From: a virus
Lineage: Duplodnaviria > Heunggongvirae > Uroviricota > Caudoviricetes
IMG/VR virus record: IMGVR_UViG_2663763227_000005
Length of the DNA stretch: 8,835 bases
Strand: one strand, 5' to 3'
Every line of letters begins with the position of its first letter. Position 1 is the stretch's first letter. Below the pieces are notes generated by a model that saw only the letters and a list, made by a program, of their open reading frames with translations, was not told the DNA's origin and made no database searches. Positions 61-7,487 of the stretch are shown piece by piece. The translations under genes were made by a program, and so were the position numbers.

Positions 61-675
61 TTGTTGACCACTTCAAACTTCCACGGAGTTGAGTTGGTGC
101 CCACCCGTGATATGCATGGTGTTTGGTTTACATCATCTAATATTGCATCTGCACTTAAATACGCAAATAGTCGTGCAGTAACAATGATTTATAACAAGTA
201 TAGCGATGAGTTTAGCGCCGGAATGACTCAGGTACTCGAAGTGAGTACCTCAGGAAATTATCGCAAAAAAGTGCGAGTTTTCTCACTACGCGGTGCCCAC
301 CTAATCGCGATGTTTGCTCGCACTCCGGTAGCCAAAGAGTTCCGCCGCTGGGTGCTGGATATTTTGGATCGGCAGGCAGAATGCTCACCGATTGCAAAAC
401 AGTTTACTGACGAAGAACTGGTTAATCTCTGCTACTTACAATTGTGGATGGAGAAGAGTCAACAAATGTGCAAACACATCTACCCAGGAATGAAGCAAAT
501 TGGTTCTGAGCTTTCAGGAAGGATTTACGATATTGCATATGAGACTCGCTACATGTCAGAAGAAACCAAGAAATCACTTCTTCGTGAAATGAAGAATCTT
601 GATACCAACAATTTTGTCGTAAAGAACGCTCAGCCAATGCTGGCAAAACTTCGCGGCGAGGAATGGATTCATTGA
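61..675 (+). CDS. Bro-N domain phage protein (antirepressor-like, DNA-binding). Start uncertain: TTG at 61 or 64, with an in-frame ATG only at 112.
   Basis: N-terminal pattern FHGVELVPTRDMHGVWFTSSNIASALKY ... VFSLRGAHLIAMFARTPVAKEFRRWVLDIL fits the Bro-N signature (F.F.G..IR...GEPWFVAKDVA..LGY ... LINESGLYSLI..S..P.AK.FK.WV) as I remember it. An in-frame stop at 43-45 bounds the ORF. A GGTGG SD-like sequence lies 7 nt upstream of TTG 61. Confidence 0.65.
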   Translation: MLTTSNFHGVELVPTRDMHGVWFTSSNIASALKYANSRAVTMIYNKYSDEFSAGMTQVLEVSTSGNYRKKVRVFSLRGAHLIAMFARTPVAKEFRRWVLDILDRQAECSPIAKQFTDEELVNLCYLQLWMEKSQQMCKHIYPGMKQIGSELSGRIYDIAYETRYMSEETKKSLLREMKNLDTNNFVVKNAQPMLAKLRGEEWIH

Positions 676-763
676 TTGGTGCGCCGGACTGCGCAAAAAG
701 AAAACCGCCAGTGTGCTGCTGGCGGCCTATGTCACACCCTTACTACCACATAAGGAATGCCTA

Positions 764-1492
764 ATGACTTTTAAGAATGTAGCAAACATCGGATCCGTTG
801 TCACGGATAAAACCATTGATAGCCAGTACCTGTTAGAGATGGTCAATCATGCTCGTAGACAGTGCGGGGAAAAAGAAGTCCGAAATAACGACTTTATTGC
901 ACGCATTAAGGATGAACTTGAAGGTGAGCACTACGAAATTTTCGTAGTTCAAAAATCAAACAAGACAACTTCTGAAAAAGTTGTTATGTCAATTAAGCAA
1001 GCCCTTCGAGTGGCTGCTCGTGAATCTAAAGCTGTTCGCCGCTCACTTGTAGACCAACTTGAAAGTATGCAAGAAGCGCACATTAAAAGCGGTAAATCGT
1101 CGAGTGGACTTGTTGAGTATCGCCAGGCGCGAACATTGAAAATGACGGTTGAAGCTGTTACCAATCTGTTCGATTTGATGCCAAATCTTGCGCCGGAAGC
1201 AAAGCAGACTGCGGCAGCAAGCATAATCAACCCGATAGTTGGTTTTAATGCAATACCTCTTCCGGCAATAGAAGAGCATTACTACTCAGCAGGGGAGGTT
1301 GCAGAGCAGCTTGGAGTAACGGCCAACAAGATTGGTCGCATTGCTAACGCAAACAACCTCAAAACTGAGCAGTACGGGAAGTTCTTCCTGGATAAATCTG
1401 CGCATTCCAGCAAACAGGTGGAAGCATTCCGCTACAATGCGGAAGGTGTTAAAGCTCTACAACACCTGATTCATGGGAGTAATGTTGCATAA
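764..1492 (+). CDS. Phage protein of unknown function, possibly regulatory. The C-terminal segment YYSAGEVAEQLGVTANKIGRIANANNLKTEQYGKFF looks like an HTH-type DNA-binding motif seen in antirepressor C-terminal domains. An alternative GTG start at 713 is less likely.
   Basis: Long ORF with AAGGA SD (752-756) 7 nt upstream of ATG 764. The GTG at 713 falls inside the loop of a hairpin (705-725). Domain assignment is by remembered pattern only. Confidence 0.6.
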   Translation: MTFKNVANIGSVVTDKTIDSQYLLEMVNHARRQCGEKEVRNNDFIARIKDELEGEHYEIFVVQKSNKTTSEKVVMSIKQALRVAARESKAVRRSLVDQLESMQEAHIKSGKSSSGLVEYRQARTLKMTVEAVTNLFDLMPNLAPEAKQTAAASIINPIVGFNAIPLPAIEEHYYSAGEVAEQLGVTANKIGRIANANNLKTEQYGKFFLDKSAHSSKQVEAFRYNAEGVKALQHLIHGSNVA

Positions 1493-1769: not shown

Positions 1770-2306
1770 TCAAACAACCCACCAGTTTGCCTGATTGGAT
1801 ACCAGCCTTGCAGTTTTTATGGAATTAATTATGCCATGCTCAAGAGCCTTGTTAGCATCCAAAATGGTCGAGTCTGCTATCAGGGATGCCCACCTAATAT
1901 GGGTTCCGATGTCGATATTGAACGTCTCAACGAAGCGATCAAGATCGTTATCGAGGCATTTCCCGTACTCTCTCAATCTGGCATGGTCGGCGGCTGGGGA
2001 GGCAAAGCACCATAATAGAGGATGTAACAGGAATCTTGATAATGGGTTTGCGAAACGTTCTGAGCCAGCCAGGAAAACGATATTAGCTATGGATTCAACA
2101 TTGCTTATGTTGTGAGTTCTAACGGTAACAGGGAGTGACTTAAGAAAGTTATACGCAGTAAAGCCAGCGGCAGTTTCCCCTCCCTGACTTGATATATGGA
2201 TATTTAATTCAGTTGCGCCTTGAGATAATGCGGTGAGACAGTGGTTCTGAAGTTGCCCAACAGTGGCAGTGTTAACGGGGCATAAGAAATGAATTGTGTG
2301 CAGCAT
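1770..2306 (-). CDS. ClpP-fold (Clp/crotonase superfamily) serine protease, minimal core of 178 aa, in the sieA position of the immI region.
   Basis: Aligns by eye to the E. coli ClpP core: ISSQGGETAAG vs INSPGGVITAG; VESIANIVFLAG vs AASMGAFLLTAG (catalytic Ser aligned); RFLLHP vs RVMIHQP (catalytic His aligned); ANKALEHGIINSI vs APEAVEYGLVDSIL. The ATG overlaps the mnt stop (TAATG on the minus strand), with AAGGA 9 nt upstream. Confidence 0.8.
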   Translation of the reverse strand: MLHTIHFLCPVNTATVGQLQNHCLTALSQGATELNIHISSQGGETAAGFTAYNFLKSLPVTVRTHNISNVESIANIVFLAGSERFANPLSRFLLHPLLWCFASPAADHARLREYGKCLDNDLDRFVETFNIDIGTHIRWASLIADSTILDANKALEHGIINSIKTARLVSNQANWWVV

Positions 2307-2554
2307 TATTTTTCATCCTTACCATACATGGTCTTTAGCGTCTCAAGCAGCGCCTCTTTGAATTTGTCAGCTTCTTGCTGAGCAAATGACTCAACTGACT
2401 TTGGCGACCTATCTTCATCAATCGCGGCTTGCAAAATCATGACGATCTCGGAGTTAACAGAGCGACCATTTTTTGATGCTCTGACAGCAAGAGCCTCGCG
2501 TAAAGATTCAGGGATTCTTACCGTAGTTGGAGAAATTGACACACCCTTTGCCAT
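2306..2554 (-). CDS. mnt: Mnt-like ribbon-helix-helix maintenance repressor (82 aa).
   Basis: GRSVNSEIVMILQAAI matches P22 Mnt GRSMNSELLQIVQDAL as recalled. Size is right (P22 Mnt is about 83 aa). It is divergent from arc-ant as in P22. AAGGTG SD lies 4 nt upstream of the ATG. Confidence 0.8.
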   Translation of the reverse strand: MAKGVSISPTTVRIPESLREALAVRASKNGRSVNSEIVMILQAAIDEDRSPKSVESFAQQEADKFKEALLETLKTMYGKDEK

Positions 2555-2668
2555 ATCACACCTTTGGTATTCAATTTGATAGCAAAGTGTATGCAGAAAA
2601 ATTTTGACTAGATATACTCACTTTGCTATCTTTTGTATTCGAAAAGAGTTGTTTGTGTGGAGGGTAAC
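2555..2668. promoter_or_regulatory. Divergent immI promoter/operator region between mnt and arc. Candidate Pant is -35 TTGACT (2604-2609), 17-bp spacer, -10 TATCTT (2627-2632). A perfect 12-bp inverted repeat GATAGCAAAGTG (2578-2589) / CACTTTGCTATC (2619-2630) brackets the -35 and overlaps the -10.
   Basis: Read directly from the sequence. The arrangement is analogous to P22 Pant/Pmnt with Arc and Mnt operators, though the operator sequences differ from the P22 ones I remember. Pmnt could not be placed confidently. Confidence 0.5.
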
Positions 2669-2821
2669 ATGGAGAAAGAAATAAGTAAGATTTTGGTAAG
2701 GATGCCGCAGTCGTTAAAGGATGCTATAGGTAGCAGGGCAAAGGAAGAGTGCAGGTCGTTTAACTCAGAGGTTATCAAGCGCCTGATAGACAGCTTGAAG
2801 AGAGAGGGGGTAATGGTATGA
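2669..2821 (+). CDS. arc: Arc-like ribbon-helix-helix repressor (50 aa from ATG 2669). The track ORF starts at TTG 2633, but the ATG with a GGAGGG SD is preferred.
   Basis: ILVRMPQSLKDAI...CRSFNSEVIKRLIDSLKREG matches P22 Arc ...RWPREVLDLV...GRSVNSEIYQRVMESFKKEG in pattern. GGAGGG (2658-2663) lies 5 nt upstream of ATG 2669. Confidence 0.75.
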   Translation: MEKEISKILVRMPQSLKDAIGSRAKEECRSFNSEVIKRLIDSLKREGVMV

Positions 2822-3021
2822 GTAAAGAATGTTGTTTCTGCGGCATTAGCGAATCAGACGCTGATCAAACATACATTTACTCTAAAGAAACAGGTCGGAT
2901 GCTGTGTAGTGACTGCGTGTTGGACATCATAAGATACAAGCATCTTGGATGTTCTGCCAGCATTAGCAATATAGGTGAAGTATATGAAGGGAAAGATATA
3001 ACTGATAGATCAGAAAGTTGA
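2818..3021 (+). CDS. Small CxxC...CxxC zinc-ribbon protein (67 aa) inserted between arc and ant; function unknown.
   Basis: Cys5-x2-Cys8 and Cys30-x2-Cys33 spacing. The ATG overlaps the arc stop (ATGA at 2818-2821). No equivalent gene lies between arc and ant in P22 as I recall it. Confidence 0.5.
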   Translation: MSKECCFCGISESDADQTYIYSKETGRMLCSDCVLDIIRYKHLGCSASISNIGEVYEGKDITDRSES

Positions 3022-3083
3022 AGCCCCAACTGCGGGAACAGTCAGGGCTTCGGTATCAACAAATCGTCTTAGGAAATATTGAC
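3013..3083 (-). ncRNA. sar: Candidate sar-like antisense RNA (about 70 nt), complementary to the ant ribosome-binding site and start codon.
   Basis: Leftward promoter: -35 TTGATA (plus-strand 3113-3118), 17-bp spacer, extended -10 TGcTATACT (plus-strand 3090-3098). Predicted TSS is near 3083. A compound hairpin AAGCCC-ca-ACTG-cgggaa-CAGT-ca-GGGCTT (3021-3050) is followed on the minus strand by CAACUUUCUG. The predicted length matches the roughly 68-69 nt P22 sar RNA (from memory). Confidence 0.4.
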
Positions 3084-4013
3084 ATGAAAAGTATAGCAAC
3101 AGCAGTATCTACTATCAATGTGCCATTCCACGGCGCAGAGCTTTATGTTGTCAATCACAACGGCGAACCGTACACCCCAATGAAACCTATCGTTGAGGGA
3201 ATGGGCATGACTTGGCAGTCTCAACACCGCAAGTTGATGGAGAGATTTAAGACCTGCATCATCGAAATGATGATTCAGCTCCCCGGCGATACTCAGCGTC
3301 GTCTGGTTATCTGTCTTGCTTTACGCAAACTTGCAGGTTGGCTGCAAACCATCAGCCCTAACAAAGTCCGCCCTGAAATCCGCGACAAGGTAATCCAGTA
3401 TCAGGAAGAGTGTGACGATGTACTCTACGAGTACTGGACTAAAGGCCATGTAGTTAACCCACGCAAAGCTAAAAAAGCGTTGCCGGGTAAAATCACCACT
3501 GAACAGCAGGAAGCCATTAAACAACTCGTCATGAGTCGCGGTCAGTCTCTGCCAAAAGAAAAACAGGCGAAGGCAATGATTACCATGTGGTCGTCACTGA
3601 AATCCCATTTTGGATGTTCGTACAAAGAAATCAGTGAGGAGCAGTTTACAGAAGCACTGTCACTTGCAGCTCGAGTTCCACTTGAAGGTGAGTTCATTGG
3701 CAAACAAGAGAAGAAAACCAACGAGCTTTCTGCAAAAGAAGCAAACAGCCTTGTATGGTTATGGGATTATGCCAACCGCTCACAGGCATTATTCCGCGAA
3801 CTGTATCCGGCGCTAAAACAAATTCAATCGAACTATTCCGGCAGATGTCATGACTGCGGTTATGAGTTCTCCCGTATTATCGATATGGCGAGAGATGTTT
3901 TAATCAACCATACACGAGATATTGATATTAATGAGCCAGACGGACCAACGAATCTTTCCGCATGGATGAGACTTAAGAATAAAGAATTACCTCCTTCAGT
4001 ACATAACTACTGA
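3084..4013 (+). CDS. ant: Ant antirepressor (P22 Ant-type N-terminal domain), 310 aa from ATG 3084. The track ORF starts at TTG 3018, which would run through the hairpin.
   Basis: VPFHGAELYVVNHNGEPYTPMKPIVEGMGMTWQSQHRKLMERF resembles the P22 antirepressor N-terminal domain pattern. AGGAAA (3071-3076) lies 7 nt upstream of ATG 3084. The position after arc and before the tailspike is as in P22. Confidence 0.85.
   Translation: MKSIATAVSTINVPFHGAELYVVNHNGEPYTPMKPIVEGMGMTWQSQHRKLMERFKTCIIEMMIQLPGDTQRRLVICLALRKLAGWLQTISPNKVRPEIRDKVIQYQEECDDVLYEYWTKGHVVNPRKAKKALPGKITTEQQEAIKQLVMSRGQSLPKEKQAKAMITMWSSLKSHFGCSYKEISEEQFTEALSLAARVPLEGEFIGKQEKKTNELSAKEANSLVWLWDYANRSQALFRELYPALKQIQSNYSGRCHDCGYEFSRIIDMARDVLINHTRDIDINEPDGPTNLSAWMRLKNKELPPSVHNY
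3090..3118 (-). promoter_or_regulatory. Psar-like leftward sigma70 promoter inside the 5' end of ant.
   Basis: Minus-strand TTGATA - 17 bp - TGcTATACT, a near-consensus extended -10 promoter, read directly from the sequence. Confidence 0.45.
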
Positions 4014-4030
4014 TAGATAACCAACGCAAC

Positions 4031-4056
4031 GACCCAGCTTCGGCTGGGTTTTTTTA
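4031..4056 (+). terminator. Rho-independent terminator after ant.
   Basis: GC-rich stem ACCCAGC (4032-4038), UUCG tetraloop (4039-4042), stem GCTGGGT (4043-4049), then a T-run through 4055. Confidence 0.8.
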
Positions 4057-4113: not shown

Positions 4114-6801
4114 ATGACAGATATTACAGCCAATGTGATCGTATCGATGCCTTCGCAACTCTTCACTATGGCTCGTTCTTTTAAAGCCGTAGCCAATGGC
4201 AAAATTTATATCGGTAAAATTGACACTGACCCGGTAAATCCTGAAAACCAGATTCAGGTTTATGTGGAGAACGAAGACGGCTCTCACGTTCCTGTTTCGC
4301 AACCAATAATCATTAACGCTGCTGGATATCCGGTATATAACGGGCAGATTGCCAAATTCGTTACCGTGCAAGGTCATTCTATGGCTGTTTATGATGCATA
4401 TGGTGCGCAGCAGTTCTATTTTCCTAATGTGCTGAAGTATGACCCTGATCAGTCATTGAAATATGTAGAAGGGGCATTGCTTGTTACTGACTTAGGTAAT
4501 GGGACGTTTAAGAATAGTAGAAAAGACGTTGCCATTGGGGATAATCTAACAGGAACCAATTTTATTAGAATAAACGGCGGCGTCTATAAATGCACTCCAG
4601 TTGCAACTGGAATTGTTACTGAGATCAAACATAGATACATTATCGCAGGCGGGGTTAAAAGCTACCTGTCTCATATTTCCAGGCATGTCAGTGGTACGCG
4701 TAGGCCGCTGAACTGGAAATTAGAATTCAGCATCATAGACGATGAGATTACCGCAGATCTTAAAGATCAGTATGGTTACACGACCATGGGATTTCAGGGG
4801 ATTTACATAGACAGCAATGATGGAATGGTATACATCGGCTGGCAGACGCTAGACCCCGCATCGGTATGGGTTACGGTGCATGACTGGGTAACAGGAGCAT
4901 TGGTAACACGTCTTCATTTTCCGAATAACGTTGGTGCACCAGAAGGCATCCACGTTTACCGAGTGGCAGGACAGCGTTACATCCTGCTGCCGTACAGCCC
5001 ATCTCGCACTATCAGAATTTACCCTATCGAAGATCCGCGTACGCTGGTTGATAAAACGCAGATTACAAACTTCACTGAATCAACACGCCTTGGAGTGCGA
5101 TATCAGTTTAGTGGCTTTGGTAATACCCTGATATACGAAAATGCGGATATGGGTTGGCCGAAAATTTTTGATGTTGAGACAGGTGTATCCAATATCTTTA
5201 ACACACTGGATATTAACAGCCTTATAGAAGGATCTTACAGTCCAATGGGGACTATTACGGTTGATGCAAATGTTGGAGGTCGCGGAGCCGGTAAACCAAA
5301 ACGGCAGGGTGTCGCTCTTGGTTCTCAACGGATATTTGCTGGTATTGGTGCATCTACCACGGCGGGATCTGGAAATACTTTCGCAGGGTTGCAGGGTTAT
5401 ATTGAGTACAGCCTTAATGGTTCAGAATTAGGTCAGTACCTGCTGTCACCTGCAGATTTCAAAACATACTGGGATAGTTATTCAGGGAAGAGTGTTTACT
5501 CCACTGAAAATGAGGGGGTGCAGTCTTGTGATATTTCTGGCTCTGAGGAATTGTATCTTCTACAGTCTATTCGCTATGACAATGGGGGCGGATCAAATTA
5601 TAGGACTTTAAACATCATTCGCGCTAACTGTCCATCTAATGAACCTGGAACAGTAGACATGACTCCGCTATCCAATGCCTCCTCACAGTTATTTAACCCT
5701 CGCGGAAGGGTGATTAACGCTGGCCGTCACCCTGTGAACCCGGCTGATGGTATTGCGCTATTTACATCGGCACAGGCTATTTGTGACTATTTGCGGAATA
5801 CAGATGCAGGTAGATATGTGACATATCTTGAACAGGATATGCCACTGTTTGAAGGTGGGCCATCTGCGCCAGGACAGATGACGCTGCCAGCATTCTGCCT
5901 ATTGCAGATCGACTTCATCAACGGCGATACCTGGGAAATTACAGTTAATGGAACTAACAGGGCTAATAATTATACAGGAAGGATTTCCAAAAACGGCGGG
6001 TACAACTCTTTTACTAAGGTGTCCTCCCGCAGCATGTCGATTCTCGGATCCCCTGGTCTGGTTGATGTATCAATTCGCTCACCTAACTCACTAAATCTTC
6101 CAGAATTTGCTGGAGACTGGTCTACTGGTGTAAGTATAGGAGCTGCAGGTGGGGTGACAAACTGGCAGCCAGAAGGAACAGGTAACGGAGCATTATGGGA
6201 GTCAGGATATGCAAAAAACCGTGTGTTGCAGATATTCATGTCCACAACATCAAAACTGTTCTTCCGCTACGCAGACGATGCTATTCGCGCAGGTAACACA
6301 GGCTGGGCTGAGGCATGGTCGTCGCTGAACACGACCGTCGATTCAAGTGGTTTCATCAAAAAAGCCTCTCCGGTTGTGAAGATTTTCTCAGACGGTAGTA
6401 GTGAAACAAATCGCGAATCAGATGGGGTAACCGTCACACGGCTGGCATTGGGTGAATATCTGATTGAGGGTTGCGTAGGTCTGAATGCAGATGCTTCATG
6501 GGGGGGGATTGATGGTGGATTTGAAATACCGCAGGACCGAAACAAGCAGCCGCTCATCTGGCTGGATTATGTTGTTAACCAAGATGGATCTGTGTTGGTG
6601 AAAACGTTTCACCGCACTCATGATAACTCGCCCGTTTTTGCACGTAACGACATCCCTGGTGTTTCGAACGGTGACCCGATCGACATTCCTGCTAATCAAT
6701 TCGTTTCTGTGCGAGTACAGATGCCTGAGGATTCTGCATGGAATAAGCTTAAGGAACAACTAAATAAGGCTGAATTGATAGAAGATGATGTTGTGGAATA
6801 G
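4114..6801 (+). CDS. Tailspike protein (895 aa). The N-terminal roughly 113 aa is a P22 gp9-type head-binding domain; the remaining roughly 780 aa is a divergent receptor-binding or depolymerase module of unknown specificity.
   Basis: [71 protein letters not shown]...[13 protein letters not shown]...NVLKYDPDQ is near-identical in pattern to the P22 gp9 N-terminus ([59 protein letters not shown]...VLKYDPDQ). Similarity is lost after YDPDQ. GGAG (4102-4105) lies 8 nt upstream of the ATG. Confidence 0.9.
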
Positions 6802-7487
6802 GTCTGTGATATTGGCATAGGTATAAGTGTCCGCTATATGGGTGGCATTACGCCACCTTGCCATCTAGCTAGTCCGCCCACCACTGCATCATTTCTCTGC
6901 GCTTAACGTAGCGGATGCCTCACTATCACACGGTGATGGTTCATTACTGCTTTGTAGAATGGATAGAGAACTGAGGATTAAAAGATATCCCAAAACCCCA
7001 AAATCTCATCTTTAGGATTTGCAGAAAGGGAGGCGTGAACAGATGCCTGCGCATGAAGACGGAACTAGTCCAGATGTGATATTTGTGGTGATCACATACA
7101 TCATCAACGATGCTCGTTATGGTGAGTTTGATGACTACCCGCTGAAGTGAAAATTGTTTTGTGTACCAAATTGCGTACCAAACTAAAATCACAAATCATG
7201 AAGCCCTTGTTCATGGCGGTTCTCAGGGGTGTTGCGCGTAATCGTGAAACAAAAAGGTAGATTGTTGCTTACCGTCATTCATCATTAGGTTAAATCCGTT
7301 GTTTCTGCTGTCTGCCAGAGTATCAAATATCACCGTGCTAATCAGCTTTAGCGCGACAATTTGGCAGCGAGTGGCAACAGATCATGTCAGATAAAAATGA
7401 GAGGGTAGTCACATTTTCTTGCACTTTATTCCAGCCAGTTCATAAGTATTTCCGTAAAAAGAACAGCTATTTGAAACTCCTGAGGGT

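Follow-up and report, generated by a model that had tools for sequence, protein, structure and literature searches.

A P22-type head-binding domain joined to a rare receptor cassette with a predicted five-bladed beta-propeller in an Escherichia coli prophage

The tailspikes of P22 (gp9), Sf6 (gp14) and HK620, all P22-like podophages (Lederbergvirus and relatives), share a PF09008 head-binding domain that is joined at a YDPDQ junction to a right-handed parallel beta-helix with endorhamnosidase or endoglycosidase sequence, and their genes stand last in the late region, after an immI-like antirepressor cluster. Most characterized P22-type and other coliphage tailspikes are beta-helix enzymes specific to one O or K antigen, and podophages that cross the O-antigen layer usually need an enzymatic spike. 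CUS-3 is an example of a P22-type head-binding domain followed by a receptor module that contains a propeller instead of the beta-helix; the endosialidases of CUS-3 and K1F are GH58 sialidases that have six blades and a C-terminal chaperone of their own, and to our knowledge that of CUS-3 is the nearest coliphage precedent for a propeller on this anchor. Five-bladed propellers occur in the receptor-binding proteins of phages of Gram-positive hosts, namely phi11 Gp45 (Staphylococcus aureus, PDB 5EFV), P68 gp17 and Brochothrix phage NF5 gp18 (PDB 9M7X). These follow a common stem-platform-tower plan in which an N-terminal triple coiled-coil stem attaches the protein to the baseplate (siphophages) or the collar (podophages), the receptor is considered to bind at the propeller platform, and the tower consists of two similar small beta subdomains. 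In phi11, GlcNAc of wall teichoic acid has been modeled, not observed, as the ligand in the platform cavity.

Here we describe a tailspike-position receptor-binding protein gene in which the P22-type anchor is followed by a receptor part of another kind. It lies in an 8,835-nt stretch of DNA (hereafter, the window), where it occupies 4114..6801 on the plus strand, starts with ATG and encodes 895 amino acids before its stop codon. The product is longer than P22 gp9, as the initial annotation noted, by 228 residues (gp9 is 667 aa in PDB 8tvr). Residues 1-113 (4114..4452, +) form the head-binding, particle-anchoring domain and match PF09008 over its full length (E 6.3e-67, profile 1-113 of 113). 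Gap-free alignments to PDB sequences give 85/113 identical residues (75%) with P22 gp9 (2vky/8tvr) and 104/114 (91%) with Sf6 gp14 (7sg7), and identity spans 75-92% across the P22, Sf6 and HK620 tailspikes. The collinearity with gp9 over residues ~1-113 that the initial annotation reported is thus supported by alignment. With the anchor of CUS-3 the identity is 95% over residues 1-119, and no sequence similarity to the CUS-3 or K1F endosialidases was found past residue 119. A PHROG label of "colanic acid degradation" (phrog_8280) covers only residues 1-118 of this shared anchor, and we set it aside as uninformative on the receptor module.

Every PDB tailspike alignment ends at residue 113/114, where YDPDQ (residues 109-113, nt 4438-4452) gives way to serine (junction feature, 4438..4455, +). 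The break is also visible in DNA: at this dacD site strain UTAK-8 has another tailspike gene, whose near-identity to the window runs through ...TATGACCCTGA, beyond which the two are unrelated, so that these alignments place the recombination junction at about nt 4450-4455. The abrupt stop near nt 4450 and the module-swap mosaic at the canonical head-binding/receptor-binding boundary, both proposed in the initial annotation, are seen in protein and DNA alike. Its observation that the gp9 endorhamnosidase sequence is absent also stands, with residues 114-895 lacking any gp9 beta-helix match in Pfam or among PDB sequences.

The genomic position of the gene is that of P22 gp9-type tailspikes, which are final late genes beside an immI-type region. 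According to the ORFs and their PHROG matches, the late region of this P22-like prophage ends with the gene, upstream are Arc-family and antirepressor-like genes, as is typical of immI in P22, and the host gene dacD lies downstream. In strain KE40 the site is empty and dacD adjoins sbcB; in MS 21-1 the prophage integrase is adjacent to sbcB. The same or near-same genes in 11 complete E. coli genomes are annotated as "phage head-binding domain-containing protein". One relative is a complete circular P22-like genome of 39.9 kb (NZ_CP146561.1), found in two hospital-wastewater isolates, which combines a lambda-like early region with P22-type portal, coat, gp4, gp10 and ejection protein genes. Because the tailspike gene is the last gene of this genome, it is the tailspike-position protein of an apparently complete phage. 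No O-antigen-modifying gene sits beside the tailspike in this complete genome. The record is filed as a "plasmid" and its cI-type repressor gene is frameshifted; it may be a phage caught in replication or induction rather than a plasmid that is stably maintained.

The frameshifted repressor, together with the pseudogene debris at the prophage end (a HumD-like fragment), could suggest that the prophage is defective and the gene a remnant in decay or without function, its unusual C-terminus having no role. We regard this as very improbable, given an intact 895-aa ORF, the recurrence of its C-terminal 2.35 kb at a DNA identity of at least 99.3% in 14 of 5,426 complete E. coli genomes at three loci (the dacD site, the bio/ybhB site and the circular element), a 90% cluster of 182 member sequences, full-length variants at 67-74% identity, and its presence in a phage genome that is complete and has every morphogenesis gene.

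Several features of the surrounding DNA deserve mention in their own right. A putative terminator-like hairpin followed by a T-run, found by a consensus scan, lies between the antirepressor gene and the tailspike gene (4031..4050, +), and the segment from the tailspike stop codon to dacD (6802..7487) holds the prophage end and attachment region; its counterpart in HCM-26C-1 is annotated as a frameshifted fragment of a HumD-like translesion polymerase. Within 4 kb there are three antirepressor-like ORFs (61..675, 713..1492 and 3018..4013, all +; PHROGs 245, 1726 and 245/524) and two Arc-family genes (2306..2554, -, and 2633..2821, +), and the immI module appears expanded and mosaic, with content that varies among otherwise similar prophages. 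Directly downstream of the minus-strand Arc-family repressor gene, and co-oriented with it, is a gene for a 178-aa ClpP-like serine protease (1770..2306, -), unusual cargo for such an antirepressor region; among PHROGs it best matches "head maturation protease" (E 7e-21), and its relatives in RefSeq bear the name "ATP-dependent Clp protease proteolytic subunit". Between the Arc-like and antirepressor genes, a 67-aa ORF (2818..3021, +; phrog_7150, function unknown, E 1e-49) has CxxC...CxxC spacing and may encode a small zinc-ribbon protein.

The initial annotation treated the C-terminal 780 residues as one long unrecognized module. This is correct insofar as they have no close characterized homolog: a close relative among characterized tailspike receptor-binding domains was sought in PDB, protein and phage genome searches, and none was found. 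The description does not hold as regards a single block, nor for residues 739-872, which match Pfam family PF25670, nor for the protein as a whole, which is spanned by phrog_20129 (function unknown). A neck or linker (residues 114-197; 4453..4704, +), 54% conserved among close homologs, is followed by a predicted five-bladed beta-propeller (residues about 198-520; 4705..5673, +) for which we propose glycan binding and possibly catalysis, and then by a beta-rich, tower-like region (residues 521-738; 5674..6327, +) whose fold is moderately to poorly predicted (model pLDDT 28-87). PF25670 (Phage_tail_C_2; 6328..6729, +) comes next, with a Pfam E of 2.1e-59 and 199.8 bits against a cut-off of 27, and the protein ends in an acidic tail (residues 873-895; 6730..6798, +) with 26-27% conservation among close homologs. 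The whole-protein Pfam scan gave no match within residues 114-738, and NCBIfam gave none. A second junction falls inside the neck at about nt 4636, past which the gene of an XJ55-type prophage is 99.5% identical; the DNA matches that show this junction (H77-H79) start at query position 187-208, and the neck alone is also found in two other proteins (P0010 and P0011).

The end of the protein has its relatives in coliphage tail fibers. Residues 519-890 have counterparts at 35-69% identity in tail fibers of cultured coliphages, and part of residues 521-738 is common to three distant family members (P0008, P0009 and P0016) and to the coliphage tail fibers of TH30 and HK544. The PF25670 region, one of the most highly conserved parts of the cassette (78% among close homologs), matches residues 637-785 of SU10 gp12, a proximal long-tail-fiber protein, at E 7e-61; in the gp12 structure residues 1-90 alone are resolved, and the PF25670 part falls outside them. 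It is 58-69% identical to the C-termini of the HK446, mEp234 and Flotzy tail fibers and also terminates the LLS tail fiber. Across SU10 gp12 and the side tail fibers of HK446, mEp234 and HK544, the C-terminal 130-190 residues are 47-69% identical to the present protein; unlike it, those four fibers are propeller free.

This distribution could mean that PF25670 with the tower-like region is the true receptor-binding tip, or a docking site for another fiber protein, with the propeller as an accessory or as the element of primary reversible binding. PF25670 ends the fibers of HK446, mEp234, HK544, Flotzy and LLS, is highly conserved, and in SU10 terminates proximal gp12, which joins the distal protein gp13. 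We nonetheless find this reading improbable. No partner-fiber gene follows the tailspike, since the prophage ends within a few hundred bases; the predicted sites of phi11 and P68 are on the platform and not at the tower tip; and distant members of the propeller family (17-29% identity to the 895-aa protein) lack PF25670 and end in an S74 chaperone or other domains, which makes the propeller the constant element.

We modeled the receptor part with AlphaFold2. With six close homologs, residues 115-735 gave a pLDDT of 46; this model was discarded, and its neck is unreliable. An alignment of 16 sequences that included distant members (A3) was the basis of a usable model of residues 190-735, with a mean pLDDT of 74.8 and values of 80-95 across residues ~200-520. 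DSSP strands of this model form five four-stranded blades, the last of which is closed by an N-terminal strand (residues 200-208), as in the P68 platform. Beyond the propeller, residues 553-637 are modeled as a helix with 4-5 strands, and further strands follow (pLDDT 28-87). On the question of whether the region of residues ~115-895 is a beta-helix, a propeller or something else, the model of residues 190-735 gives a predicted five-bladed propeller over residues about 198-520, and no beta-helix was detected or predicted in residues 190-735. A divergent, hidden beta-helix depolymerase was likewise rejected, no beta-helix protein being present among the structural matches listed.

The closest structures in a structural search were the non-enzymatic receptor-binding platforms of phi11 Gp45 and NF5 gp18, at 12-15% identity in the structural alignments; the Foldseek alignment spans 620 columns with a high rigid-body rmsd. 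The present model shares the five-bladed propeller platform with these proteins and with P68 gp17. Sequence homology to Gp45 was undetectable when the family profile was compared using hhalign (probability 0.4%, E 0.13), and a PDB profile search did not find 5EFV, returning only marginal matches to the Cj1041c protein and a WD-repeat protein. We therefore claim the predicted resemblance at the level of fold and not as family membership or common ancestry with Gp45. Differences accompany the likeness. In place of the triple coiled-coil stem there is a P22 head-binding domain with a neck, and PF25670 is an addition at the C-terminus. The host is Gram-negative, in contrast to those of phi11, P68 and NF5, and the ligand therefore cannot be wall teichoic acid. 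Finally, Gln, Thr and Met line the cavity of phi11, whereas the predicted pocket here is rich in invariant carboxylates.

Despite the 17-29% identity of its distant members, A3 contains a set of invariant residues (E277, K396, Q398, G412 and E465-N466-E467) and a nearly invariant set (Q228, D233, G278 and R288). On the predicted model the conserved residues map to the first strands of blades 1, 2, 4 and 5 or immediately ahead of them: Q228 and D233, at least 90% conserved, in the QGIYID motif of blade 1 (4795..4812, +); E277 of an invariant P-E-G motif just before blade 2 (4942..4944, +); K396-R-Q398 of the PKRQG motif in blade 4 (5299..5307, +); and E465-N466-E467 of the ENEG motif in blade 5 (5506..5514, +). 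The first strands of propeller blades are innermost and line the axial cavity. The pattern suggests an axial glycan-binding site, possibly a catalytic one, with the axial placement following from strand order in the model; it fits a ligand-binding pocket, a catalytic pocket or a structural metal site. Acidic residues bind a structural metal in other propellers, and those that are invariant here could do the same.

Catalysis is favored by the richness of this set in carboxylates and by the reliance of P22-like phages, in general, on spikes that are enzymes. In this reading the propeller would itself be a polysaccharide-degrading enzyme (a glycosidase, lyase or esterase) of a new family that uses E277, E465 and E467, and perhaps D233, within its axial cavity; the protein would then be a true depolymerase tailspike of non-beta-helix fold. 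The initial annotation had likewise raised a new depolymerase family. That suggestion retains some plausibility, although the structures that match best are phage receptor-binding proteins of a non-enzymatic kind, and a comparison with glycoside hydrolase and lyase families (Pfam and NCBIfam, with Pfam at E <= 10 for 16 of 16 family members) produced no sequence match. Signatures of GH43, GH32, GH62 and GH68 in particular were missing from all 16 members at that Pfam threshold and from the PDB profile search. Five-bladed propeller enzymes, including bacterial glutaminyl cyclase (3MBR and 3NOK) and the GH43, GH32, GH62 and GH68 families, score structurally below the phage receptor-binding proteins, and their catalytic residues are not to be equated with the present ones short of a structural alignment; the C-terminal domain of E. 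coli YjiK (3QQZ, function unknown), also a five-bladed propeller, scores below them as well. Neither these enzymes nor YjiK gave a match by sequence or HMM in the Pfam and PDB profile searches. In one distant member (P0022, 882 aa) the propeller is joined to a C-terminal GDSL/SGNH esterase domain (E 6e-16), which suggests that the propeller itself is the binding part. Adding that the varied O types of the lysogens, described below, are a poor match to a serotype-specific depolymerase, we judge the enzyme reading unlikely, while giving it real weight. A new depolymerase family is possible, and we rate it below a role as a glycan-binding adhesin.

The receptor module is new in the sense that it is uncharacterized, extremely rare and absent from the cultured phage genomes searched. 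A word-indexed search of 5.8 billion proteins recovered six 90% clusters, and a second such search with the diverse alignment added no homologs; an HMMER profile run exhaustively against 1.84 billion representatives yielded 17 proteins at E <= 0.001; and in 50,697 deposited phage genomes the propeller region had no tblastn match at E <= 0.01. By these searches, residues ~115-738 belong to a very rare family. One member (P0015, 352 aa) is a stand-alone propeller with a signal-peptide-like N-terminus, and it may therefore be a cellular, non-phage homolog.

The six close homologs are 67-74% identical from residue ~174 to 872, and they differ in their anchors, which are of the PF09008, PF18668 (TSP1/Gp66-type) or T7-tail-like kind. 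In one siphophage contig (L012, 10001..12934) the cassette has a PF18668 anchor and is preceded by tape-measure, NlpC/P60 and tail-tip genes; in XJ55 (L001, 8311..11160) it follows a T7-tail-like N-terminus in a different prophage, beside a GH19 lysis cassette. The module is found on three phage backbones. Because the anchors differ, a siphophage contig holds a copy and the XJ55 copy is 99.5% identical from nt ~4636, the cassette is, as judged from sequence comparison, a portable receptor unit. Coliphage receptor-binding proteins exchange cassettes in the same manner (PMC10408124).

The O antigens of lysogens provide clues to the receptor, given that tailspikes of P22-like prophages normally follow the host O antigen. 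Five of the 14 lysogens were O typed, and they carry four different O-antigen loci: HCM-26C-1 is O7, MS 21-1 is O1, KE40 and OZ546993 are O15, and SCU-109 has a fourth locus (L015, 4924..17283), which holds glf and genes for rhamnose synthesis and into which insertion sequences have intruded. A single O antigen common to all lysogens is ruled out for the typed strains by these four loci. Searches with wzy of O7, O1 and O15 (the best 60 of 93-100 matching records each) showed that, among the matches listed, other O7 strains have a different tailspike at the same dacD site. The four loci in five typed lysogens argue against a classical O-serotype-specific depolymerase and are suggestive of a receptor not confined to one O serogroup, on a sample of five lysogens whose O loci can be exchanged after lysogeny. 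The SCU-109 O locus is broken by ISAs1 and IS630 remnants, and this strain may be a rough lysogen, which, if true, would be informative on the need of the phage for O antigen. The genomes of MS14384 and WP7-S17-ESBL-01 are rearranged.

Taken jointly, we favor with moderate confidence a reading in which the gene encodes a propeller-cassette receptor-binding protein that holds an E. coli surface glycan in its axial pocket, probably not a single O-antigen repeat. The phage would be temperate and P22-like, with its prophage inserted between sbcB and dacD, and this protein would bind the receptor at its tail. If P22 and Sf6 are a guide, residues 1-113 would anchor what we infer to be a trimer to the tail hub. 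Recombination at YDPDQ would have replaced the usual parallel beta-helix with the portable cassette, ordered as neck, five-bladed propeller, tower-like beta domains and PF25670 C-terminal domain. The predicted propeller would be most like the platforms of phi11 Gp45 and NF5 gp18, and from the literature that of P68 gp17, in which a cavity in the platform face is thought to bind a cell-wall sugar; here the candidate contacts for the glycan would be Q228/D233, E277, K396/Q398 and E465-N466-E467. This explanation draws on a fold predicted from 16 sequences in which residues 521-738 are poorly modeled. The C-terminal module very probably sets host recognition, and its target is probably not one specific O-antigen repeat unit. 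Whether the propeller also cleaves or deacylates the glycan it would bind is a matter on which we lean toward the negative, while giving catalysis a considerable chance.

A more far-reaching version of these ideas has the cassette as a new family of phage glycan-active enzymes, with E277, E465 and E467 as catalytic residues, acting on a structure common to many E. coli serogroups, such as a GlcNAc-containing or core/ECA-type epitope. It would confer serotype-independent recognition on P22-like, epsilon15-like and siphophage backbones, and its fold would have come by descent or by exchange from the receptor-binding proteins of Gram-positive phages. We offer it as speculation that is rather unlikely to hold in full.

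Which bacteria can be targeted, whether by a phage, an engineered tailocin or a diagnostic derived from a phage, depends on the tailspike receptor module. Five-bladed propellers of the phi11/P68/NF5 platform type are unusual in coliphage tailspikes, and the cassette presents a different solution from the beta-helix, of a type structurally described so far in Staphylococcus and Brochothrix phages. If recognition is indeed serotype independent, the cassette would be useful as a broad-range targeting module; if catalysis occurs, it would represent a new carbohydrate-active fold family in phages. At the level of fold, the predicted model extends the stem-platform-tower architecture to phages of Gram-negative bacteria.
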